DNA from: Escherichia coli
GTDB lineage: Bacteria; Pseudomonadota; Gammaproteobacteria; Enterobacterales; Enterobacteriaceae
Assembly (NCBI RefSeq): GCF_017348835.2
Contig: NZ_CP072315.1
Strand: one strand, 5' to 3'
Length of the DNA: 64,000 nucleotides
This document shows positions 34,653-51,582 of this stretch, piece after piece. The notes beneath the pieces are model-generated. The model ran no database searches. It was given only the letters and a program-made list of their open reading frames with translations, and was not told the DNA's origin. Numbering within the stretch: position 1 is the first letter of the stretch; each line of letters opens with the position of its first letter. Position numbers and translations under genes: made by a program.

Positions 34653-34690
34653 GGGGAGCCCGCAGAATTCGGAAAAAATCGTACGCTAAG
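34653..34690 (+). repeat. Tn1721-type 38-bp terminal inverted repeat (IRR-like)
   Basis: GGGGAGCCCGCAGAATTCGGAAAAAATCGTACGCTAAG. Confidence 0.85.
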
Positions 34691-35360
34691 GTTTTCCGGG
34701 CATCCGTAAGGGCCGAAACTTCCCGTCTTCCAGTCTGCGGCTCTGCCGCCAGACGTAATCGCCGGTTAGGTTGATGTGCTCCCAGCCCAGCGGCGACAGG
34801 AATTGCAGCAGCTCGCCGTCCACCGGCTTGCCGGCCTCGACCAACCCCTGGGTGGCGCGTTCCAGGTACACCGTGTTCCACAGCACGATAGCCGCCGTCA
34901 CCAGGTTGAGGCCGCTGGCCCGGTAGCGCTGCTGCTCGAAGCTCCGATCCCTGATTTCCCCAAGGCGGTTGAAGAACACCGCCCTGGCCAGCGAGTTGCG
35001 CGCCTCACCTTTGTTCAGGCCGGCATGCACGCGGCGGCGCAGTTCAACACTTTGCAGCCAGTCCAGGATGAACAGCGTGCGCTCGATCCGGCCCAGCTCG
35101 CGCAGGGCCACGGCCAGTCCGTTCTGGCGCGGGTAGCTGCCGAGCTTGCGCAGCATCAGCGAGGCGGTGACGGTGCCCTGCTTGATCGAGCTGGCCAGGC
35201 GCAGGATGTCGTCCCAGTGGGCACGCACGTGCTTGATGTTCAGGGTGCCGCCGATCAGCGGGCGCAACGTCGGGTAGGCTTGCACGCCCTGCGGCACGTA
35301 CAGCTTGGTTTCGCCGAGGTCGCGGATGCGCGGCGCGAAGCGGAAGCCTAGCAGGTGCAT
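34686..35360 (-). pseudogene. tnpA: 3' fragment of a Tn21-subgroup (Tn1721-type) transposase gene
   Basis: 224-aa ORF ending inside the 38-bp inverted repeat with Tn3-family transposase C-terminal character; fragment continues to the Tn3 repeat junction near 35400. Confidence 0.7.
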
Positions 35361-35402
35361 CAGGGCAAAGACGTGATCGGTGAAGCCGGCCGTGTCGGTG
35401 TA

Positions 35403-35440
35403 GGGGTCTGACGCTCAGTGGAACGAAAACTCACGTTAAG
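35403..35440 (+). repeat. Tn3 38-bp terminal inverted repeat
   Basis: GGGGTCTGACGCTCAGTGGAACGAAAACTCACGTTAAG. Confidence 0.9.
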
Positions 35441-36738
35441 CAACGTTTTCTGCCTCTGACGCCTCTTTTAATGGTCTCAGATGTCCTTTGGTCACCAGTT
35501 CTGCCAGCGTGAAGGAATAATGGCCGAGCATATTGATATGTCCGTGGCAAAGCGGGGAGAGGCGTGCGATATCTTCATCATTCAGTGTTTCACCCTGCGC
35601 CCGGAGATGATCCAGGGCTGCCTGCATATAAATAGTGTTCCATAACACGACGGCGTTAGTGACCAGCCCCAGTGTGCCCAGTTGATCTTCCTGACCGTCG
35701 GTATATCGTTTTCTTATCTCACCTTTTTGACCGTGACAGATGGCTCTGGCAACGGCATGGCGACTTTCTCCCCGATTAAGCTGGGTCAGAATGCGCCGGC
35801 GGTAATCTTCATCATCAATATAATTAAGCAGATACAGCGTTTTGTTGATGCGCCCCACTTCAATGATTGCCTGAGTCAGTCCGGAAGGACGTTCACTTTT
35901 CAGCAATGAACGGACCAGCACTGAAACCTGTACTTTGCCCAGCTTCAGGGAGCCAGCGGTCCGGATCATTTCGTCCCACTGAAGGACTATTTTTCGGGGA
36001 TCTGATTGCCCTCTGGCAATATCATTCAGCACGCCATAGTCGGCATCATGGTCCATTCGCCAGAAAACCGAAGCACCGGCATCAGCCAGGCGTGGAGAAA
36101 ACTGGTATCCCAGCAGCCAGAAAAGGCCAAAGACAAGTTCGCTGGCACCTGCTGTATCGGTCATAATTTCGGTTGGATTCAGCCCGGTCTCCTGTTCCAG
36201 AAGACCTTCCAGCACAAAGATAGAGTCCCTCAGCGTCCCCGGTATAACGATGCCATGAAAGCCGGAATACTGATCGGACACAAAGTTGTACCAGGTGATC
36301 CCTCTGTTATTACCAAAGTATTTGCGGTTCGGTCCGGCATTGATTGTTCTGACTGGCGTAACAAAGCGCATTCCATCTGCAGATGCCACTTCTCCTCCAC
36401 CCCATATCTGTGCCAGTGGCAGCGTTGCCTGAAAATCAACCAGTCTGGCATTAGCGCTGGTGATAGTTTCAGCCCGCAGATAGTTCGCTTTTGTCCAGTT
36501 CAGCCGGTGTCGGGTCAGTGCAGGAACATTTGATCTGATCAGTGGTTCCAGACCGATATTGCAGGCTTCAGCCATCAGCACGGCGCTGATGCTGACGGGC
36601 AGATCATCAACTCTGGCACTGGCTTCACTAGCATGGAAAAACTCATCAGCAAATCCGGTATGGGCGTTAATTTCGAGCAGCAACTCCGTTAAATCCACCG
36701 GAGGGAGTAGATCACTGATCATTTTGCTCAGTCGTTTC
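35436..36738 (-). pseudogene. tnpA: Tn3 transposase gene, 3' portion, truncated by IS26
   Basis: About 430 C-terminal residues of Tn3-type TnpA (…RLSKMISDLLPPVDLTELLLEINAHTGF… to …HLRPLKEASEAENVA); the track ORF's start codon lies inside IS26. Confidence 0.85.
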
Positions 36739-37557
36739 GGCACTGTTGCAAATAGTCGGTGGTGATAAACTTATCATCCCCTTTTGCTGATGGAGCTGCA
36801 CATGAACCCATTCAAAGGCCGGCATTTTCAGCGTGACATCATTCTGTGGGCCGTACGCTGGTACTGCAAATACGGCATCAGTTACCGTGAGCTGCAGGAG
36901 ATGCTGGCTGAACGCGGAGTGAATGTCGATCACTCCACGATTTACCGCTGGGTTCAGCGTTATGCGCCTGAAATGGAAAAACGGCTGCGCTGGTACTGGC
37001 GTAACCCTTCCGATCTTTGCCCGTGGCACATGGATGAAACCTACGTGAAGGTCAATGGCCGCTGGGCGTATCTGTACCGGGCCGTCGACAGCCGGGGCCG
37101 CACTGTCGATTTTTATCTCTCCTCCCGTCGTAACAGCAAAGCTGCATACCGGTTTCTGGGTAAAATCCTCAACAACGTGAAGAAGTGGCAGATCCCACGA
37201 TCCTCAACACGGATAAAGCGCCCGCCTATGGTCGCGCGCTTGCTCTGCTCAAACGCGAAGGCCGGTGCCCGTCTGACGTTGAACACCGACAGATTAAGTA
37301 CCGGAACAACGTGATTGAATGCGATCATGGCAAACTGAAACGGATAATCAACGCCACGCTGGGATTTAAATCCATGAAGACGGCTTACGCCACCATCAAA
37401 GGTATTGAGGTGATGCGTGCACTACGCAAAGGCCAGGCCTCAGCATTTTATTATGGTGATCCCCTGGGCGAAATGCGCCTGGTAAGCAGAGTTTTTGAAA
37501 TGTAAGGCCTTTGAATAAGACAAAAGGCTGCCTCATCGCTAACTTTGCAACAGTGCC
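36739..37557 (+). mobile_element. IS26 copy 1 (819 bp, transposase frameshifted)
   Basis: 14-bp ends GGCACTGTTGCAAA / TTTGCAACAGTGCC; 1 bp shorter than the other copies from a change near 37198 (CCCACGATCCTCAACACGG versus CCCACGATTCATCAACACGG in other copies); no 8-bp target duplication. Confidence 0.9.
36802..37505 (+). pseudogene. tnp26: IS26 transposase gene, frameshifted
   Basis: Reading frame splits into track ORFs 36784..37314 and 37185..37505; protein diverges after KKWQIPR. Confidence 0.85.
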
Positions 37558-39079: not shown

Positions 39080-39899
39080 GGCACTGTTGCAAAGTTAGCG
39101 ATGAGGCAGCCTTTTGTCTTATTCAAAGGCCTTACATTTCAAAAACTCTGCTTACCAGGCGCATTTCGCCCAGGGGATCACCATAATAAAATGCTGAGGC
39201 CTGGCCTTTGCGTAGTGCACGCATCACCTCAATACCTTTGATGGTGGCGTAAGCCGTCTTCATGGATTTAAATCCCAGCGTGGCGTTGATTATCCGTTTC
39301 AGTTTGCCATGATCGCATTCAATCACGTTGTTCCGGTACTTAATCTGTCGGTGTTCAACGTCAGACGGGCACCGGCCTTCGCGTTTGAGCAGAGCAAGCG
39401 CGCGACCATAGGCGGGCGCTTTATCCGTGTTGATGAATCGTGGGATCTGCCACTTCTTCACGTTGTTGAGGATTTTACCCAGAAACCGGTATGCAGCTTT
39501 GCTGTTACGACGGGAGGAGAGATAAAAATCGACAGTGCGGCCCCGGCTGTCGACGGCCCGGTACAGATACGCCCAGCGGCCATTGACCTTCACGTAGGTT
39601 TCATCCATGTGCCACGGGCAAAGATCGGAAGGGTTACGCCAGTACCAGCGCAGCCGTTTTTCCATTTCAGGCGCATAACGCTGAACCCAGCGGTAAATCG
39701 TGGAGTGATCGACATTCACTCCGCGTTCAGCCAGCATCTCCTGCAGCTCACGGTAACTGATGCCGTATTTGCAGTACCAGCGTACGGCCCACAGAATGAT
39801 GTCACGCTGAAAATGCCGGCCTTTGAATGGGTTCATGTGCAGCTCCATCAGCAAAAGGGGATGATAAGTTTATCACCACCGACTATTTGCAACAGTGCC
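39080..39899 (-). mobile_element. IS26 copy 2 (820 bp)
   Basis: Both 14-bp ends present; abuts a 5'-truncated IS26 in the opposite orientation at 39900. Confidence 0.9.
39132..39836 (-). CDS. tnp26: IS26 transposase Tnp26 (Asn at position 184)
   Basis: 234 aa from [12 protein letters not shown]; contains KRIINATLG. Confidence 0.9.
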   Translation of the reverse strand: MNPFKGRHFQRDIILWAVRWYCKYGISYRELQEMLAERGVNVDHSTIYRWVQRYAPEMEKRLRWYWRNPSDLCPWHMDETYVKVNGRWAYLYRAVDSRGRTVDFYLSSRRNSKAAYRFLGKILNNVKKWQIPRFINTDKAPAYGRALALLKREGRCPSDVEHRQIKYRNNVIECDHGKLKRIINATLGFKSMKTAYATIKGIEVMRALRKGQASAFYYGDPLGEMRLVSRVFEM

Positions 39900-40207
39900 C
39901 AAACGCGAAGGCCGGTGCCCGTCTGACGTTGAACACCGACAGATTAAGTACCGGAACAACGTGATTGAATGCGATCATGGCAAACTGAAACGGATAATCG
40001 GCGCCACGCTGGGATTTAAATCCATGAAGACGGCTTACGCCACCATCAAAGGTATTGAGGTGATGCGTGCACTACGCAAAGGCCAGGCCTCAGCATTTTA
40101 TTATGGTGATCCCCTGGGCGAAATGCGCCTGGTAAGCAGAGTTTTTGAAATGTAAGGCCTTTGAATAAGACAAAAGGCTGCCTCATCGCTAACTTTGCAA
40201 CAGTGCC
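39900..40207 (+). mobile_element. Partial IS26 (3' terminal 308 bp)
   Basis: Encodes the C-terminal about 80 aa of Tnp26 with Gly at position 184 (KRIIGATLG); ends with TTTGCAACAGTGCC. Confidence 0.85.
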
Positions 40208-40416: not shown

Positions 40417-40917
40417 TTAGATTTCGAGTTCTAGGCGTTCTGCGATGAAGGTTGGATCCCAGCCGGGATTGAAAGTGTCGACGTGGGTGAATCCGAGCCG
40501 CTCGTATAGGCCACGCAGGTTCGGGTGGCAGTCGAGCCGCAGCTTGGCGCACCCCTGCGTTCGCGCGGCATGGCGGCAAGCCTCGATCAGCGCGGAGCTG
40601 ACACCCCGGCCCGCATGTGTCCGTCGCACCGCGAGCTTGTGCAGATATGCGGCCTCCCCCTTGAGGGCGTCGGGCCAGAACTCGGGATCCTCGGCCGACA
40701 AGGTGCAACAGCCGACGATGCCGTCGCTGCAACTCGCGACTAGGAGCTCGGATCTCAGGACGAAGGTCTCCGCGAATGTCCGGTCGATCCGCGCGACGTC
40801 CCAGGCGGGCGTTCCCTTGGCGGACATCCACGCCGCAGCGTCGTGCATCAGCCGCACAACCTCGTCGATATCACCCGAGCAGGCGACCCGAACGTTCGGA
40901 GGCTCCTCGCTGTCCAT
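40417..40917 (-). CDS. orf5: GNAT acetyltransferase (orf5 of the 3'-conserved segment)
   Basis: 166-aa ORF MDSEEPPNVRVACSGDIDEVVRLMHDAAAWM…. Confidence 0.85.
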   Translation of the reverse strand: MDSEEPPNVRVACSGDIDEVVRLMHDAAAWMSAKGTPAWDVARIDRTFAETFVLRSELLVASCSDGIVGCCTLSAEDPEFWPDALKGEAAYLHKLAVRRTHAGRGVSSALIEACRHAARTQGCAKLRLDCHPNLRGLYERLGFTHVDTFNPGWDPTFIAERLELEI

Positions 40918-41044: not shown

Positions 41045-41884
41045 CTAGGCATGATCTAACCCTCGGTCTCTGGCGTCGCGACTGCGAAATTTCGCGAGGG
41101 TTTCCGAGAAGGTGATTGCGCTTCGCAGATCTCCAGGCGCGTGGGTGCGGACGTAGTCAGCGCCATTGCCGATCGCGTGAAGTTCCGCCGCAAGGCTCGC
41201 TGGACCCAGATCCTTTACAGGAAGGCCAACGGTGGCGCCCAAGAAGGATTTCCGCGACACCGAGACCAATAGCGGAAGCCCCAACGCCGACTTCAGCTTT
41301 TGAAGGTTCGACAGCACGTGCAGCGATGTTTCCGGTGCGGGGCTCAAGAAAAATCCCATCCCCGGATCGAGGATGAGCCGGTCGGCAGCGACCCCGCTCC
41401 GTCGCAAGGCGGAAACCCGCGCCTCGAAGAACCGCACAATCTCGTCGAGCGCGTCTTCGGGTCGAAGGTGACCGGTGCGGGTGGCGATGCCATCCCGCTG
41501 CGCTGAGTGCATAACCACCAGCCTGCAGTCCGCCTCAGCAATATCGGGATAGAGCGCAGGGTCAGGAAATCCTTGGATATCGTTCAGGTAGCCCACGCCG
41601 CGCTTGAGCGCATAGCGCTGGGTTTCCGGTTGGAAGCTGTCGATTGAAACACGGTGCATCTGATCGGACAGGGCGTCTAAGAGCGGCGCAATACGTCTGA
41701 TCTCATCGGCCGGCGATACAGGCCTCGCGTCCGGATGGCTGGCGGCCGGTCCGACATCCACGACGTCTGATCCGACTCGCAGCATTTCGATCGCCGCGGT
41801 GACAGCGCCGGCGGGGTCTAGCCGCCGGCTCTCATCGAAGAAGGAGTCCTCGGTGAGATTCAGAATGCCGAACACCGTCACCAT
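41045..41884 (-). CDS. sul1: Sulfonamide-resistant dihydropteroate synthase Sul1
   Basis: 279 aa from [23 protein letters not shown]. Confidence 0.95.
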
Positions 41885-42225
41885 GGCGTCGGCCTCCGCA
41901 GCGACTTCCACGATGGGGATCGGGCGAGCAAAAAGGCAGCAATTATGAGCCCCATACCTACAAAGCCCCACGCATCAAGCTTTTGCCCATGAAGCAACCA
42001 GGCAATGGCTGTAATTATGACGACGCCGAGTCCCGACCAGACTGCATAAGCAACACCGACAGGGATGGATTTCAGAACCAGAGAAAGAAAATAAAATGCG
42101 ATGCCATAACCGATTATGACAACGGCGGAAGGGGCAAGCTTAGTAAAGCCCTCGCTAGATTTTAATGCGGATGTTGCGATTACTTCGCCAACTATTGCGA
42201 TAACAAGAAAAAGCCAGCCTTTCAT
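41878..42225 (-). CDS. qacEdelta1: Truncated SMR efflux protein QacEdelta1
   Basis: 115 aa [27 protein letters not shown]…. Confidence 0.95.
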
Positions 42226-42335
42226 GATATATCTCCCAATTTGTGTAGGGCTTATTATGCACGCTTAAAAATAATAAAAGCAGACTTGACCTGATAGTTT
42301 GGCTGTGAGCAATTATGTGCTTAGTGCATCTAACG
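42223..42335 (-). repeat. About 110-bp direct repeat, copy A (start of 3'-conserved segment upstream of qacEdelta1)
   Basis: CCCAATTTGTGTAGGGCTTATTATGCACGCTTAAAAATAATAAAAGCAGACTTGACCTGATAGTTTGGCTGTGAGCAATTATGTGCTTAGTGCATCTAACG. Confidence 0.9.
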
Positions 42336-42341
42336 CCTGAA

Positions 42342-43187
42342 TTAAGCTGCGCCGCGAAGCGGCGTCGGCTTGAATGAACTGTTAGACATCATTGGCGTGG
42401 AGCCGAGCAGACTGGCGGCTTCGTGCTTCACAAAGTAAATGAACGCAGTCAACTGATCAGCGCGTGAGGCCAAGCAATCCATCCCTTGTCCAAGGTAAGC
42501 CTGCTGGGCTTCAAGCAGCACGGGCTGATGTTGGACGGGCAGGCGTTCCATTACCCAGTTGGCAGCTACATCCTTCGGCGCGATCTTGCCGGTTGCTGCG
42601 CTGTACCAAATGCGAGACAAAGTAAGCACTACATTCCGCTCGTCGCCTGCCCAATCCGGTTGTGAGTTCCATAGTTTCAAGGTGTCGGCCAGTGCTTTGA
42701 ATAGATCGCTTTCCGGGACTGAGTTGAAGAAATCTTCCGCGGCCGAACCTGCCAAGGCAAGGCTGTGTTGCCTTGCTTTAGTTAGCAGAATAGCCAGATC
42801 AACATCGGTTGTCGCGGGCTCGAAGATGCCCGCAAGAATGTCCTTGCGCTGCCACTCCCCGAATTGCAGTTCCCGTCTGGCTGGATAACGCCAAGGAACA
42901 ACATCGCCGTACACGACGATGGTAACTTCCAAGGCACGGAGAGCTTCACTTTGGCCGGGAGAAGCGGAAACTTCCAGGAAATCTACGAACAGAGCCTGCC
43001 GCACAGTCTCATCGAGCTGTGCAGTCACAGTAACCAGCAAATCAATATCACTGCATGGCTTCAGGCCACCGTCGAGTGCAGAGCCGTACAAATGCACGGC
43101 CAGCAACGTCGATCCCAGATGATGCTCGATGACGTTGAGTGCCTGTGATAGCTGTACCGAAATCTCGGCGGGCACTGCGTTGCTCAT
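42342..43187 (-). CDS. aadA16: Aminoglycoside (3'')(9) adenylyltransferase, aadA16-type
   Basis: 281 aa from MSNAVPAEISVQ; C-terminus …MSNSSFKPTPLRGAA reads into the attC region; allele assignment is from the array context and my recollection of the gene length. Confidence 0.8.
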   Translation of the reverse strand: MSNAVPAEISVQLSQALNVIEHHLGSTLLAVHLYGSALDGGLKPCSDIDLLVTVTAQLDETVRQALFVDFLEVSASPGQSEALRALEVTIVVYGDVVPWRYPARRELQFGEWQRKDILAGIFEPATTDVDLAILLTKARQHSLALAGSAAEDFFNSVPESDLFKALADTLKLWNSQPDWAGDERNVVLTLSRIWYSAATGKIAPKDVAANWVMERLPVQHQPVLLEAQQAYLGQGMDCLASRADQLTAFIYFVKHEAASLLGSTPMMSNSSFKPTPLRGAA

Positions 43188-43299
43188 GATGTCTAACTCC
43201 CAATTTGTGTAGGGCTTATTATGCACGCTTAAAAATAATAAAAGCAGACTTGACCTGATAGTTTGGCTGTGAGCAATTATGTGCTTAGTGCATCTAACG
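43186..43299 (-). repeat. About 110-bp direct repeat, copy B (5' region of the aadA16 cassette)
   Basis: Near-identical to copy A; supplies the MSNA start of aadA16. Confidence 0.9.
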
Positions 43300-43367
43300 C
43301 CGCTAAGCAGCGGCACATTTTGCGTTTTGAGCGCAGCGAAGCAAAATGTGTCCGATGGCTTGGATGG

Positions 43368-43841
43368 TTAACCCCTTTGCCAGATTTGATAGCGATAATT
43401 TATATTTGAATGAAATTCCTGCTCGAACACCACATTGAACTCTTTGGGGATTTCCGGAAAGAAAACATTGCCCTCTGGCTCGGAATCTATTGTCGAGATA
43501 TGTAGCGTGTCGGCATGGGCGATCAGACTCTTGTAGATCTCTCCACCACCAGAAACAACAACATGGTTCGTAAGAGTCTTTAGCTCCCTCATTGCTGCTT
43601 CTATAGATGGAAACACAACCACATCATCGTTAGTAGCTACCGATCCTGAGCGGCTGACAACTGCATACTTTCTATTTGGGAGAGCCCCCATTGCCTCAAA
43701 TGTTTTACGGCCGACTAAGAGCCATTGATTGTAAGTTATTGCTTTAAAAAGCAGCTGCTCACCTTTAGCGTTCCACGGGATATCCGAGCCGCAGCCAATA
43801 ACCCCATTTCTTGCTTTTGCAGCCATTAGTGATATTTTCAC
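43368..43841 (-). CDS. dfrA27: Trimethoprim-resistant dihydrofolate reductase, dfrA27-type
   Basis: 157 aa from a GTG start (V)[22 protein letters not shown]…; 474 bp. Confidence 0.8.
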
Positions 43842-43973
43842 GATACTCCTTTGGGTTAACGCCGCCATAAACGGCGACAGGGTGGCGCGCCTATTGCGCA
43901 TAAAATGGCGAAGCCATGCGCAACAGGCGCGGAATCTCTGGCGTCCGGTTTGATGGCTTTGTTATGCAAAGGA

Positions 43974-44426
43974 CTAGTCTTCAATGACGTGTAAACCACG
44001 GCGCTTTAAGTCCTCCAACGAATCCAACATTCCCCTTATTAATTCAACAGGATGCCCCTCCCAGTCTTCAACAACGCCAACAATTCTCAAGGGTTCGCAG
44101 GTTCTATAGGACTGTGTTGGATTACCGGGAAATCTTTTGTTCGTAAGATTCGGATCGTCTTCGAACGGTCCTGTTGGCTCAACTATGTATATGTAGCCGC
44201 GACCCTCGAGGCCAGACAGTGACATAGCAAGTTCAGCTCCCCAAACTGCTGGCTCCATCAAGGCTGAAAAGTAGATGTGCTTAAGAATACGACCGTCCTC
44301 GAAATGAGAGATGAACCCTGTGGTTAGCAAGTCACCAATCGCCAAATTGGCTTTGGTTCCATGATAGAACGGTCCTTGCACCTGCTTGTAATTATCATGA
44401 GAGATGGGAATCCAATCTTTTACCAT
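43974..44426 (-). CDS. arr-3: Rifampin ADP-ribosyltransferase Arr-3
   Basis: 150 aa MVKDWIPISHDNYKQVQGPFYHGTKANL…. Confidence 0.9.
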   Translation of the reverse strand: MVKDWIPISHDNYKQVQGPFYHGTKANLAIGDLLTTGFISHFEDGRILKHIYFSALMEPAVWGAELAMSLSGLEGRGYIYIVEPTGPFEDDPNLTNKRFPGNPTQSYRTCEPLRIVGVVEDWEGHPVELIRGMLDSLEDLKRRGLHVIED

Positions 44427-44522
44427 TTTAAGACCCTTAATTGTTGGGATTTGGCTGCATAACGTTTGACATGAGGGGCGGCCAAGGGCGCCAGCCCTTG
44501 GACGTCCCCCTCGATGGAAGGG

Positions 44523-45122
44523 TTAGGCATCACTGCGTGTTCGCTCGAATGCCTGGCGTGTTTGAACCATGTACACGGCTGGACCATATGGGGTGGTTAC
44601 GGTACCTTGCCTCTCAAACCCCGCTTTCTCGTAGCATCGGATCGCTCGCAAGTTGCTCGGCGACGGGTCCGTTTGGATCTTGGTGACCTCGGGATCATTG
44701 AACAGCAACTCAACCAGAGCTCGAACCAGCTTGGTTCCCAAGCCTTTGCCCAGTTGTGATGCATTCGCCAGTAACTGGTCTATTCCGCGTACTCCTGGAT
44801 CGGTTTCTTCTTCCCACCGTCCGTCCCCGCTTCCAAGAGCAACGTACGACTGGGCATACCCAATCGGCTCTCCATTCAGCATTGCAATGTATGGAGTGAC
44901 GGACTCTTGCGCTAAAACGCTTGGCAAGTACTGTTCCTGTACGTCAGCAAGTGTCGGGCGTGCTTCTTCTCCGCCCCACCACTCGACGATATGAGATCGA
45001 TTTAGCCACTCATAGAGCATCGCAAGGTCATGCTCAGTCATGAGGCGCAGTGTGACGGAATCGTTGCTGTTGGTCACGATGCTGTACTTTGTGATGCCTA
45101 ACTTTGTTTTTGCGTTGCTCAT
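44523..45122 (-). CDS. aac(6')-Ib-cr: Aminoglycoside/fluoroquinolone acetyltransferase AAC(6')-Ib-cr
   Basis: 199 aa from MSNAKTKLG; carries both -cr signature substitutions (Trp102Arg in GDGRWEEE and Asp179Tyr in TTPYGPAVY, numbering per the usual convention). Confidence 0.9.
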
Positions 45123-45233
45123 GATGTCTAACTCCCAATTTGTGTAGGGCTTATTATGCACGCTTAAAAATAATAAAAGCAGACTTGACCTGATAGTTTG
45201 GCTGTGAGCAATTATGTGCTTAGTGCATCTAAC
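45119..45233 (-). repeat. About 110-bp direct repeat, copy C (5' region of the aac(6')-Ib-cr cassette, next to attI1)
   Basis: Near-identical to copies A and B. Confidence 0.9.
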
Positions 45234-45295
45234 TTTGTTTTAGGGCGACTGCCCTGCTGCGTAACATCGTTGCTGCTCCATAACATCAAACATCG
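45230..45295 (-). other. attI1 recombination site
   Basis: 5'-conserved-segment end sequence …GATGTTATGGAGCAGCAACGATGTTACGCAGCAGGGCAGTCGCCCTAAAACAAAGTT read on the minus strand. Confidence 0.8.
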
Positions 45296-45368
45296 ACCCA
45301 CGGCGTAACGCGCTTGCTGCTTGGATGCCCGAGGCATAGACTGTACAAAAAAACAGTCATAACAAGCC

Positions 45369-46382
45369 ATGAAAACCGCCACTGCGCCGTTACCACCGCT
45401 GCGTTCGGTCAAGGTTCTGGACCAGTTGCGTGAGCGCATACGCTACTTGCATTACAGCTTACGAACCGAACAGGCTTATGTCCACTGGGTTCGTGCCTTC
45501 ATCCGTTTCCACGGTGTGCGTCACCCGGCAACCTTGGGCAGCAGCGAAGTCGAGGCATTTCTGTCCTGGCTGGCGAACGAGCGCAAGGTTTCGGTCTCCA
45601 CGCATCGTCAGGCATTGGCGGCCTTGCTGTTCTTCTACGGCAAGGTGCTGTGCACGGATCTGCCCTGGCTTCAGGAGATCGGAAGACCTCGGCCGTCGCG
45701 GCGCTTGCCGGTGGTGCTGACCCCGGATGAAGTGGTTCGCATCCTCGGTTTTCTGGAAGGCGAGCATCGTTTGTTCGCCCAGCTTCTGTATGGAACGGGC
45801 ATGCGGATCAGTGAGGGTTTGCAACTGCGGGTCAAGGATCTGGATTTCGATCACGGCACGATCATCGTGCGGGAGGGCAAGGGCTCCAAGGATCGGGCCT
45901 TGATGTTACCCGAGAGCTTGGCACCCAGCCTGCGCGAGCAGCTGTCGCGTGCACGGGCATGGTGGCTGAAGGACCAGGCCGAGGGCCGCAGCGGCGTTGC
46001 GCTTCCCGACGCCCTTGAGCGGAAGTATCCGCGCGCCGGGCATTCCTGGCCGTGGTTCTGGGTTTTTGCGCAGCACACGCATTCGACCGATCCACGGAGC
46101 GGTGTCGTGCGTCGCCATCACATGTATGACCAGACCTTTCAGCGCGCCTTCAAACGTGCCGTAGAACAAGCAGGCATCACGAAGCCCGCCACACCGCACA
46201 CCCTCCGCCACTCGTTTGCGACGGCCTTGCTCCGCAGCGGTTACGACATTCGAACCGTGCAGGATCTGCTCGGCCATTCCGACGTCTCTACGACGATGAT
46301 TTACACGCATGTGCTGAAAGTTGGCGGTGCCGGAGTGCGCTCACCGCTTGATGCGCTGCCGCCCCTCACTAGTGAGAGGTAG
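45369..46382 (+). CDS. intI1: Class 1 integron integrase IntI1
   Basis: 337 aa [40 protein letters not shown]…. Confidence 0.95.
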
Positions 46383-46559
46383 GGCAGCGCAAGTCAATCC
46401 TGGCGGATTCACTACCCCTGCGCGAAGGCCATCGGTGCCGCATCGAACGGCCGGTTGCGGAAAGTCCTCCCTGCGTCCGCTGATGGCCGGCAGCAGCCCG
46501 TCGTTGCCTGATGGATCCAACCCCTCCGCTGCTATAGTGCAGTCGGCTTCTGACGTTCA

Positions 46560-46584
46560 GTGCAGCCGTCTTCTGAAAACGACA
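46560..46584 (+). repeat. Class 1 integron 25-bp inverted repeat IRi
   Basis: GTGCAGCCGTCTTCTGAAAACGACA (reverse complement of TGTCGTTTTCAGAAGACGGCTGCAC). Confidence 0.9.
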
Positions 46585-46800
46585 AACAGCCAGAAAGGCT
46601 GTTACAGGCGATTTGATCTGCAACCTATTGGTTAAATTAATGTATCAAAAACGATGGTTTTTGTGACAGTCTTGAAAAGTCCTGACTTCTCCCGAAAAAT
46701 GACTCCCCTCATGTAACAAAACTCGTTACTGTATCAACATAACAATAACCCCATAACTAATTAGCGAGAAAAGAATGAAAATCGGCTATGCACGTAAATC

Positions 46801-47620
46801 GGCACTGTTGCAAATAGTCGGTGGTGATAAACTTATCATCCCCTTTTGCTGATGGAGCTGCACATGAACCCATTCAAAGGCCGGCATTTTCAGCGTGACA
46901 TCATTCTGTGGGCCGTACGCTGGTACTGCAAATACGGCATCAGTTACCGTGAGCTGCAGGAGATGCTGGCTGAACGCGGAGTGAATGTCGATCACTCCAC
47001 GATTTACCGCTGGGTTCAGCGTTATGCGCCTGAAATGGAAAAACGGCTGCGCTGGTACTGGCGTAACCCTTCCGATCTTTGCCCGTGGCACATGGATGAA
47101 ACCTACGTGAAGGTCAATGGCCGCTGGGCGTATCTGTACCGGGCCGTCGACAGCCGGGGCCGCACTGTCGATTTTTATCTCTCCTCCCGTCGTAACAGCA
47201 AAGCTGCATACCGGTTTCTGGGTAAAATCCTCAACAACGTGAAGAAGTGGCAGATCCCACGATTCATCAACACGGATAAAGCGCCCGCCTATGGTCGCGC
47301 GCTTGCTCTGCTCAAACGCGAAGGCCGGTGCCCGTCTGACGTTGAACACCGACAGATTAAGTACCGGAACAACGTGATTGAATGCGATCATGGCAAACTG
47401 AAACGGATAATCAACGCCACGCTGGGATTTAAATCCATGAAGACGGCTTACGCCACCATCAAAGGTATTGAGGTGATGCGTGCACTACGCAAAGGCCAGG
47501 CCTCAGCATTTTATTATGGTGATCCCCTGGGCGAAATGCGCCTGGTAAGCAGAGTTTTTGAAATGTAAGGCCTTTGAATAAGACAAAAGGCTGCCTCATC
47601 GCTAACTTTGCAACAGTGCC
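46801..47620 (+). mobile_element. IS26 copy 3 (820 bp)
   Basis: Both 14-bp ends; no target duplication. Confidence 0.95.
46864..47568 (+). CDS. tnp26: IS26 transposase Tnp26 (Asn at position 184)
   Basis: 234 aa; KRIINATLG. Confidence 0.9.
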   Translation: MNPFKGRHFQRDIILWAVRWYCKYGISYRELQEMLAERGVNVDHSTIYRWVQRYAPEMEKRLRWYWRNPSDLCPWHMDETYVKVNGRWAYLYRAVDSRGRTVDFYLSSRRNSKAAYRFLGKILNNVKKWQIPRFINTDKAPAYGRALALLKREGRCPSDVEHRQIKYRNNVIECDHGKLKRIINATLGFKSMKTAYATIKGIEVMRALRKGQASAFYYGDPLGEMRLVSRVFEM

Positions 47621-48510: not shown

Positions 48511-48965
48511 CTATAATCTCAAGGCTCTGTCATCGTTATTTTTTTCATGGCCTTTATCTTTAGGCCGGGCATTACCTTTATCCTGCGTCGGCTCGGCTTT
48601 GTCTCGGCCTTTTTCGCGGGTATCATGCTGCTGCTCTTTGGCATAGCGTTTGAGTTGTTCCAGCTCAAGCGCGGCGGTTTTGAACCCTTCCCGGCTGGCC
48701 GCTTTATCCAGCTTCTTCTCATCGTCGGTGTAAATGACGGCTTCGTGTTTAGCGCGGGTGACAGCCACGTAATAAACATCTTTGGCCGTTGTGAGTGATC
48801 GGGTATCCATATTGATAAAAACCTTGTCGCAGGTCAGCCCCTGAGCACTATGAACGGTCGAAGCGTAAGCCAGCCCTAAGTACATAGGTTTGTTGGCATC
48901 AATTTTTACCAGCCGCCCTTTCTCGTTCTCCAGCAGTACCTCACCACTCTGGACGCTTTTTACCT
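48511..48965 (-). pseudogene. 3' fragment of a RecD/TraI-type helicase (relaxase-like) gene, interrupted by Tn1721
   Basis: C-terminal helicase motifs (YASTVHSAQGLTCDKVFI, YVAVTRAKHEAVIYTDD); the reading frame continues up to the inverted repeat at 48972 with no start. Confidence 0.6.
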
Positions 48966-49160: not shown

Positions 49161-50738
49161 TTATCCTCGTTTTTCCCAAAACTGTTTTGCCAGTTCGCTC
49201 AGAGCGCTAGTTAACTGAGCGACAGATTTCGCACTTTGCAAATTATTCTGCCCGGTCTGTACATTGGTATCAGCAGCATCGCGTATATTGATAATACTGC
49301 GGTTTATGTCTTCACTTACTGCTCCCTGCTGCTCGACCGCAGTCGCTATTTGCGCGTTCATGTCGGTAATTTCGTTAACGCGTTGGCCAATTCCATCAAG
49401 AGCTGTAGCTGCTTCCTCTGCGTGAGCTACACTCGTGTGCGCTTGCCGACTACTTTGCTCCATGACTGTAACAGCGGATTGCGCTCGCTCTTGTAGAGCG
49501 CTGATCATGCTTTGAATATCCGTTGTCGATTGCTGTGTGCGAGCAGCAAGACTGCGAACCTCATCGGCGACAACAGCAAAACCACGCCCCTGCTCACCAG
49601 CACGCGCGGCCTCAATTGCTGCGTTGAGTGCCAACAAATTCGTTTGCTCGGCGATCCCTCGTATAACGTCAAGAACTTTTGATATCTCGTTACTTTGACC
49701 TTCAAGCTCATGAATAACCTGAGTGGCTTGCCTAATTTCACCTTCAAGGGCAGTGATTGACTGGCTTGTGTGGGCTACCAGACGCTGGCCAGATGCCGTC
49801 TCAGTGTCTGCTCTTCCGGCCGCATCTGCAGCATGCTGTGCATTGCTCGCAACCTCTTGAATGCTTGCCACCATTTGGTTTACTGCCGTTGCTATTTGAT
49901 CTGTCTCTGCCTGCTGCTCAACTGTAAGTACATTGCTTGACTCAATATCCTTTAGTAGGCCTCGGGTGTGTTCGCTAAGCCGATTTGATGCATCACCTAT
50001 GCGACCTACTATGGCGCCTGTTTCAGCTTGCATCATTCGTAAAGCAAACTCTATTTGGCCAAACTCATCGGTGCGCCCAGTGTAGAGGGATTGACTTAAT
50101 GGGTTATTGGAAATATTCCTGGCTCTTTCAACCAGTCTTCCAAGAGGAGAGAGAATAGCCAAAACACTAACAGAGCTTAAGCTTCCTGACATTAAAGTGG
50201 CTAACAATAAGCTGCTTATTGATGTATCAGTAAGCATGCCGGCAGCCATTGCGCTTGATATAATACTACCCCATATGAGCAAGAGTATTTTCACGGAAAA
50301 GCTAGCAGCCAATTTCGGCCTCGCGGCCTTCCCGCTTCTCAATTGAGCATATAATTTTTCCGCAGCCAAAACCTGCTCAGGTTCAGGCTTGGTCCTTACA
50401 GACTGGTATTCAACAATCGAACCATTCTTAGCTATTGGCGTTACATAAGCACTTACCCAATAGTGGTCGCCATTTTTACAGCGATTTTTTACTAGCCCCA
50501 TCCATGAGCGGCCAGATTTTAATGTACTCCACATATGCTCAAATGCAGCAGGCGGCATATCTGGGTGTCTTACGATGTTGTGAGGCTGGCCTAATAGTTC
50601 TTCCTCAGTGAAACCACTGATTTTAATGAAGTCAGGATTAACGTACGTGATATGGCTTTGAGGGGAGGTAGTCGAAAGAATATTGGCATCTTTTGGGAGT
50701 TCTAAGTTTCGACCCGTCACTGGTAAATTCTGGCGCAT
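49161..50738 (-). CDS. Methyl-accepting chemotaxis-like protein (Tn1721 orfI-type) with N-terminal PAS-like region
   Basis: 525 aa from [20 protein letters not shown] signalling-domain character; the 730-aa track ORF is a fusion with antisense IS26 sequence. Confidence 0.8.
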
Positions 50739-50762
50739 AAGAACCTCAAGGGTTGGCTGTTT

Positions 50763-51582
50763 GGCACTGTTGCAAATAGTCGGTGGTGATAAACTTATCA
50801 TCCCCTTTTGCTGATGGAGCTGCACATGAACCCATTCAAAGGCCGGCATTTTCAGCGTGACATCATTCTGTGGGCCGTACGCTGGTACTGCAAATACGGC
50901 ATCAGTTACCGTGAGCTGCAGGAGATGCTGGCTGAACGCGGAGTGAATGTCGATCACTCCACGATTTACCGCTGGGTTCAGCGTTATGCGCCTGAAATGG
51001 AAAAACGGCTGCGCTGGTACTGGCGTAACCCTTCCGATCTTTGCCCGTGGCACATGGATGAAACCTACGTGAAGGTCAATGGCCGCTGGGCGTATCTGTA
51101 CCGGGCCGTCGACAGCCGGGGCCGCACTGTCGATTTTTATCTCTCCTCCCGTCGTAACAGCAAAGCTGCATACCGGTTTCTGGGTAAAATCCTCAACAAC
51201 GTGAAGAAGTGGCAGATCCCGCGATTCATCAACACGGATAAAGCGCCCGCCTATGGTCGCGCGCTTGCTCTGCTCAAACGCGAAGGCCGGTGCCCGTCTG
51301 ACGTTGAACACCGACAGATTAAGTACCGGAACAACGTGATTGAATGCGATCATGGCAAACTGAAACGGATAATCGGCGCCACGCTGGGATTTAAATCCAT
51401 GAAGACGGCTTACGCCACCATCAAAGGTATTGAGGTGATGCGTGCACTACGCAAAGGCCAGGCCTCAGCATTTTATTATGGTGATCCCCTGGGCGAAATG
51501 CGCCTGGTAAGCAGAGTTTTTGAAATGTAAGGCCTTTGAATAAGACAAAAGGCTGCCTCATCGCTAACTTTGCAACAGTGCC
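50763..51582 (+). mobile_element. IS26 copy 4 (820 bp)
   Basis: Both 14-bp ends; lies 24 bp upstream of the mcp start codon. Confidence 0.95.
50826..51530 (+). CDS. tnp26: IS26 transposase Tnp26 (Gly at position 184)
   Basis: 234 aa; KRIIGATLG. Confidence 0.9.

Follow-up and report, generated by a model that had tools for sequence, protein, structure and literature searches.

The locus at positions 44523 to 45122 of the 64,000-nucleotide stretch of Escherichia coli DNA analyzed here (the window) is, with near certainty, the known plasmid-mediated quinolone-resistance gene aac(6')-Ib-cr5 (cassette aacA4cr), intact and carried as the first cassette of an In1021-type class 1 integron, with both substitutions that would extend acetylation to ciprofloxacin and norfloxacin. 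Earlier work has catalogued the gene with its two mutations, the leader and the array, and no new biology is involved.

The gene and its two -cr substitutions

The minus-strand translation of 44523-45122 gives a 199-residue protein containing both GDGRWEEE and TTPYGPAVY, and the Arg and Tyr that the original prediction had picked out in these two motifs are indeed present. Among solved structures, phmmer aligns this protein with the crystallized AAC(6')-Ib (PDB 1V0C/2BUE/2VQY; 197 of 199 residues the same, E = 3e-130). In the residue-by-residue alignment with 1V0C the only mismatches are Trp to Arg at query position 102 and Asp to Tyr at query position 179. Since the crystallized construct shares the N-terminus of the query, the numbering of both positions is the same in the two proteins; the numbering used in the literature for the 199-aa form (Trp102Arg, Asp179Tyr) agrees. 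The two residues therefore occupy the -cr sites exactly, as had been predicted.

Family membership follows the same line. The protein scores 428 bits against the NCBIfam profile NF033074 (AAC_6p_Ib; cut-off 400 bits), covering profile positions 2-184 of 184 with its residues 17-199. The stretch QLGKGLG, read in the translation at residues 122-128, corresponds to the acetyl-CoA-binding motif of GNAT proteins, which is defined as Q/R-x-x-G-x-G/A. On the strength of these sequence comparisons, the feature is assigned to the AAC(6')-Ib family of aminoglycoside 6'-N-acetyltransferases (GNAT), with the gene intact.

At the DNA level, one near-identical non-cr match among complete E. coli genomes, the intI1-aac(6')-Ib3-arr-3 locus of pEC258-3 (NZ_CP097098.1), was used as comparator. 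The 943 aligned bp begin at the start of intI1, span attI1, leader, gene and attC and reach into arr-3; they contain exactly two differences, namely TGG to CGG (T>C) and GAT to TAT (G>T). The window copy thus reads as a -cr derivative whose cassette is otherwise the same, and we regard this comparison as the cleanest available demonstration.

The allele itself is already catalogued. Identical DNA is annotated by PGAP and AMRFinderPlus as the fluoroquinolone-acetylating AAC(6')-Ib-cr5 (WP_063840321.1, identity 100%), which bears out the claim that this aac(6')-Ib carries both -cr changes, while the CARD reference for AAC(6')-Ib-cr6 is 98.99% identical. The gene is matched in 646 of 5,426 complete E. 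coli genomes, and 981 contigs are on record as encoding exactly this 199-aa protein. A chance match is not an issue, because hundreds of database records match the 600-bp gene at 100% identity. We also considered a new allele with extra amino-acid changes and rejected it, as many records agree with the gene at 100% and the protein is already known in exactly this form.

As a GNAT-family, acetyl-CoA-dependent N-acetyltransferase, the product would acetylate the 6'-amino group of kanamycin, tobramycin and amikacin. The combination of W102R and D179Y would allow it to acetylate also the free piperazinyl nitrogen at C7 of ciprofloxacin and norfloxacin, with a low-level rise in MIC; published work reports that both substitutions are required for this reaction. 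In the mechanism proposed in the literature, Tyr179 would stack on the quinolone ring and Arg102 would position Tyr179. A fluoroquinolone-acetylating activity of the window allele is thus supported, the activity being taken from the literature.

Table 1. Features of the aac(6')-Ib-cr cassette and its integron (window coordinates).
Feature	Position	Strand	Basis
aac(6')-Ib-cr coding sequence, 199 aa plus TAA stop	44523-45122	-	Translation, homology, annotation of identical DNA
Codon 102, CGG, Arg (W102R; TGG in the non-cr gene)	44817-44819	-	Codon read and alignments
Codon 179, TAT, Tyr (D179Y; GAT in the non-cr gene)	44586-44588	-	Codon read and alignments
21-nt segment, TTAGACATC+ATGAGCAACGCA, found at 100% identity at the start of the aadA16 cassette	45111-45131	-	123-nt repeat
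101-bp leader (qacE101), same sequence as the qacE cassette 5'UTR	45132-45232	-	Repeat comparison
qacE101 copy preceding aadA16	43197-43297		Repeat comparison
attI1, 65 bp, ending ...AAAACAAAG	45233-45297	-	Sequence identical to the 5'-CS of pEC258-3
P2, inactive form, TTGTTA-N14-TACAGT, no GGG insertion	45340-45365	-	Exact pattern match
Pc, variant PcW, TGGACA-N17-TAAGCT, no TGN-10	45456-45484	-	Exact pattern match inside intI1
intI1, class 1 integron integrase, 337 aa, R32/H39 form	45369-46382	+	NF011946, 799.5 bits
IRi, intact 25-bp inverted repeat on the integrase side of the class 1 integron	46560-46584	-	Exact match
attC of the aacA4cr cassette, 72 bp	44457-44528	-	GCCTAAC...GTTATGC; alignment of three loci
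arr-3, second cassette	43974-44426	-	NF033144, 222 bits; annotation
dfrA27, third cassette	43368-43841	-	NF000330, 298.5 bits; annotation as dfrA27, 100%
aadA16, fourth cassette	42342-43187	-	Profile match; annotation as AadA16, 100%
qacEdelta1, 3'-conserved segment	41878-42225	-	Annotation of identical DNA
sul1, 3'-conserved segment	41045-41884	-	Sul1, 641 bits; annotation
orf5, downstream of sul1	40417-40917		

Anatomy of the integron and its first cassette

The anatomy of the array can be read directly from the DNA. Its order is intI1, attI1, aacA4cr, arr-3, dfrA27, aadA16, qacEdelta1 and sul1 (Table 1). Transcription of intI1 is divergent from that of the resistance gene, which lies downstream of the Pc located within intI1. 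The attI1 site, whose extent we take to be the established 65 bp, ends in ...AAACAAAG, followed by the TT of the cassette, and abuts it directly, with the crossover between 45233 and 45232. The placement of the gene in first-cassette position next to attI1 and Pc, as originally proposed, is thereby confirmed.

The aacA4cr cassette measures 770 bp (44463-45232), starting at 45232 and ending at the G at 44463. The inverse core of its attC, GCCTAAC, fits RYYYAAC and overlaps the stop codon of the gene. In the three aligned loci the attC is the same up to the G/TT junction; beyond it, the sequence varies with the next cassette. The last 6 nt of the 72-bp attC hence belong to arr-3, and the core GTTATGC is one position off the G/TTRRRY consensus.

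This combination of cassettes is common. The name In1021 is given to aacA4cr-arr-3-dfrA27-aadA16 in two papers (one of them PMC5437533), and the four cassette genes appear together in 188 open-access papers. At least 378 plasmid records cover 80% or more of the 4.6-kb stretch 41800-46400. The best 25 of these show 100% identity throughout; their hosts are Klebsiella, Escherichia, Salmonella, Enterobacter, Citrobacter, Shigella, Raoultella and Leclercia.

A mosaic leader

The qacE101 leader is situated between attI1 and the ATG, and its 3' end carries a Shine-Dalgarno-like GGGAG 9 nt before that codon. Leader copies occur at three places in the array (42212-42334, 43176-43298 and 45111-45233), preceding qacEdelta1, aadA16 and aac(6')-Ib-cr, respectively, and the 101-nt segment is invariant among all three. 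The latter two copies extend into a perfect 123-nt direct repeat (43176-43298 and 45111-45233), which comprises qacE101 and the first four codons. The 21-nt segment behind the leader supplies the ATG and these first four codons (MSNA); as ATGAGCAACGCA is present in both repeats, the aadA16 and aac(6')-Ib-cr proteins both start with MSNA. This segment is followed by AAAACAAAG and, across the junction, TTAGGC, the first 9 nt repeating the end of attI1, and we take TTAGGC to be the classical start of the aacA4 cassette. The aadA16-like 21-nt start resembles the 5' ends of other aadA cassettes, and because of this resemblance we infer that it is probably native to aadA16 and was borrowed by aacA4cr.

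The mosaic of qacE101, aadA16 start and aacA4 is not new. A review describes the 101-bp qacE 5'UTR segment (qacE101) as fused to aac(6')-Ib-cr, aacA29a/b and aadA16, which are transcribed from its embedded promoter, and cites Quiroga 2007, Partridge 2009 and Raherison 2017.

The two 123-nt repeats bracket the body of aac(6')-Ib-cr together with arr-3 and dfrA27. That they drive integrase-independent homologous recombination, by which this three-cassette block is deleted or tandemly amplified, is conceivable but improbable. If true, the dosage of aac(6')-Ib-cr could change reversibly (heteroresistance) without recombination between attC and attI.

Alternative readings of the gene, its start and its expression

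The two signature residues could in principle belong to an ordinary aac(6')-Ib acting on aminoglycosides only, with R and Y lying outside the -cr sites or being sequencing noise. A source of confusion does exist, since the 184-aa RefSeq annotation would number the substitutions 87 and 164, and no other support for this reading was found. The AAC(6')-Ib of the PDB, which has the same N-terminus, nevertheless aligns the changes at exactly 102 and 179, the same two bases separate the gene from aac(6')-Ib3, and an identical sequence annotated as -cr recurs in hundreds of independent records, leaving this reading with practically no probability. The divergent numbering reflects a second issue, the start codon. 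RefSeq annotates a protein of 184 aa (555-bp CDS) starting at GTG 45077, CARD and the PDB construct have 199 aa, and the mechanical ORF begins at GTG 45161. If the functional protein were the 184-aa form, the upstream ATG and the leader would be irrelevant to translation. This would agree with the 555-bp CDS annotated by NCBI on identical DNA and with the NCBIfam profile spanning residues 17-199 only, yet the GGGAG motif precedes ATG 45122 and none is found before GTG 45077, and the crystallized AAC(6')-Ib has the same N-terminus as the 199-aa ORF. The 101-bp fragment is reportedly what supplies the start codon for the 199-aa protein, and that codon is said to have been confirmed as the start. 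Because of the GGGAG motif, the match of the N-terminus to the crystallized protein and this reported confirmation, translation most likely starts at ATG 45122 to give the 199-aa form, and we regard the 184-aa form as an unlikely product.

A different question is whether the -cr allele is expressed strongly enough to matter. Exact pattern matching identifies the promoter variant directly: the Pc is PcW, of the common variants the weakest, tabulated in the review at about 40 units compared with 1240 for PcS and hence about 30-fold weaker, and P2 has the 14-bp spacer that the review describes as inactive. Given a weak PcW and an inactive P2, an adjoining Pc alone does not imply strong Pc-driven expression. 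A simple sigma-70 consensus scan of 44400-45700 gave no promoter-like site, in the leader or elsewhere, at a threshold that PcW and P2 also failed to reach. Moreover, when In1021 was cloned into E. coli TOP10, the tabulated MICs of norfloxacin and ciprofloxacin were unchanged (PMC5437533). Taken together, these data could mean that the allele is poorly expressed, with little or no measurable share in the fluoroquinolone resistance of its host. Against this, the same clone raised the MICs of tobramycin, amikacin and netilmicin at least 60-fold, so that the enzyme was made (PMC5437533), the review reports a qacE101 promoter that transcribes aac(6')-Ib-cr, and expression within an array is highest in first-cassette position. 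Poor expression therefore appears rather unlikely. The weak PcW in intI1 can transcribe aac(6')-Ib-cr, while its main transcription would more probably start in the 101-bp qacE 5'UTR segment, which is joined to the cassette front and reported to hold a promoter; this contribution we take from the literature. The expected shift in ciprofloxacin MIC is small, and because the norfloxacin and ciprofloxacin MICs tabulated for cloned In1021 did not change (PMC5437533), the effect on quinolones may by itself be too slight to register.

The IS26-bounded multiresistance region

Judged by sequence matches, the integron lies in an IS26-bounded multiresistance region on a backbone identical to that of IncHI2A-typed plasmids. 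Over bases 1-25000 the window shows 100% identity with large plasmids of E. coli and Salmonella, including two Salmonella plasmids typed IncHI2A, and the matching plasmids carry genes for TerD-family and HipA-type toxin proteins. In addition to the integron, the multiresistance region contains bleO, floR, tet(A)/tetR, aph(6)-Id, aph(3'')-Ib (strAB), sul2 and an IncQ repC fragment. Unlike in related plasmids, neither qnr nor oqxAB was seen in the ORF list of the window and the matched annotations.

The integron is bracketed by an IS26 (46801-47620) and an IS26 fragment (39900-40207). The latter is a 308-bp 3' fragment that abuts a complete inverted IS26 (39080-39899) and cuts the 3'-CS just beyond orf5. 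At the opposite end, the 216 bp beyond IRi (46585-46800) end in the apparent start of a resolvase-like ORF (ATGAAAATCGGCTATGCACGT...) that is cut by IS26. Integrons of the Tn402 type insert in or near res sites, and the resolvase-like sequence fits this preference.

Several further observations concern the surroundings of the integron. The IS26 copy at 36739-37557 measures 819 bp instead of 820; compared with those at 39080-39899 and 46801-47620 it lacks 1 nt and has one base substituted, and its transposase ORF is truncated to 176 aa. The copy at 50763-51582 differs from the other copies at three positions (alignment columns 459, 613 and 614), and more than one IS26 variant is therefore present in the region. 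At 49161-51353, the mechanical list has a 730-aa ORF that arises by artefactual read-through: a gene for a PAS-domain methyl-accepting chemotaxis protein, about 1.6 kb long in annotated relatives, runs into an antisense frame of the adjacent IS26 (50763-51582). The 124-aa ORF at 48511-48885 weakly resembles the C-terminal part of relaxase-helicases of the TraI/TraA type and is probably a leftover isolated between copies of IS26. At 34686-36743, two adjacent Tn3-family transposase fragments beside IS26, corresponding to the C-terminal 205 and 410 residues of a 954-position profile, are remnants of earlier transposon insertions.

The value of the locus is clinical and epidemiological only. aac(6')-Ib-cr is transferable and lowers susceptibility to ciprofloxacin and norfloxacin in addition to conferring resistance to tobramycin, amikacin and kanamycin. 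The same integron links it to resistance against rifampicin, trimethoprim, streptomycin/spectinomycin and sulfonamides, and the plasmid also carries floR, tet(A), strAB, sul2 and bleO.

Comparison with known systems

The closest non-cr relative is the aac(6')-Ib3 locus of pEC258-3, in which attI1, the qacE101 leader, the start codon, attC and the downstream arr-3 cassette are identical to those of the window. Both this gene and the crystallized AAC(6')-Ib (PDB 1V0C/2BUE/2VQY) differ from the window copy in having Trp102 and Asp179 and, according to the literature, their products act on aminoglycosides only. With AAC(6')-Ib-cr (Robicsek et al. 2006; AAC(6')-Ib-cr5 of NCBI, WP_063840321.1), the coding DNA is 100% identical over 600 bp in many records; W102R, D179Y, the C-terminus and attC are shared, there is no sequence difference, and the annotated start alone differs.

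With regard to the whole array, the In1021-type integron has the same cassette order and the same qacE-derived segment before aadA16. The In1021 of PMC5437533 is tabulated with PcH1 (-10 TAAACT), whereas the window copy has PcW (-10 TAAGCT). PcW is also found in the 100%-identical plasmids; either two promoter versions of the In1021 array circulate, or the table in PMC5437533 is imprecise. A linked ISCR1-qnrB6 complex integron as in NZ_CP090546 was considered for the window and rejected: the ISCR1-qnrB6 extension is present in NZ_CP090546, whereas the 3'-CS of the window is cut after orf5 by the IS26 fragment, which ends at 40207.

The IS26-aac(6')-Ib-cr-blaOXA-1-catB3 module (e.g., p4_1_1.1, derived from In37) contains an identical gene and retains the last ~49 nt of the same leader. 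intI1, attI1 and Pc have been lost from that module to IS26, as has the first half of qacE101, and the cassette that follows the gene is blaOXA-1, whereas in the window it is arr-3.
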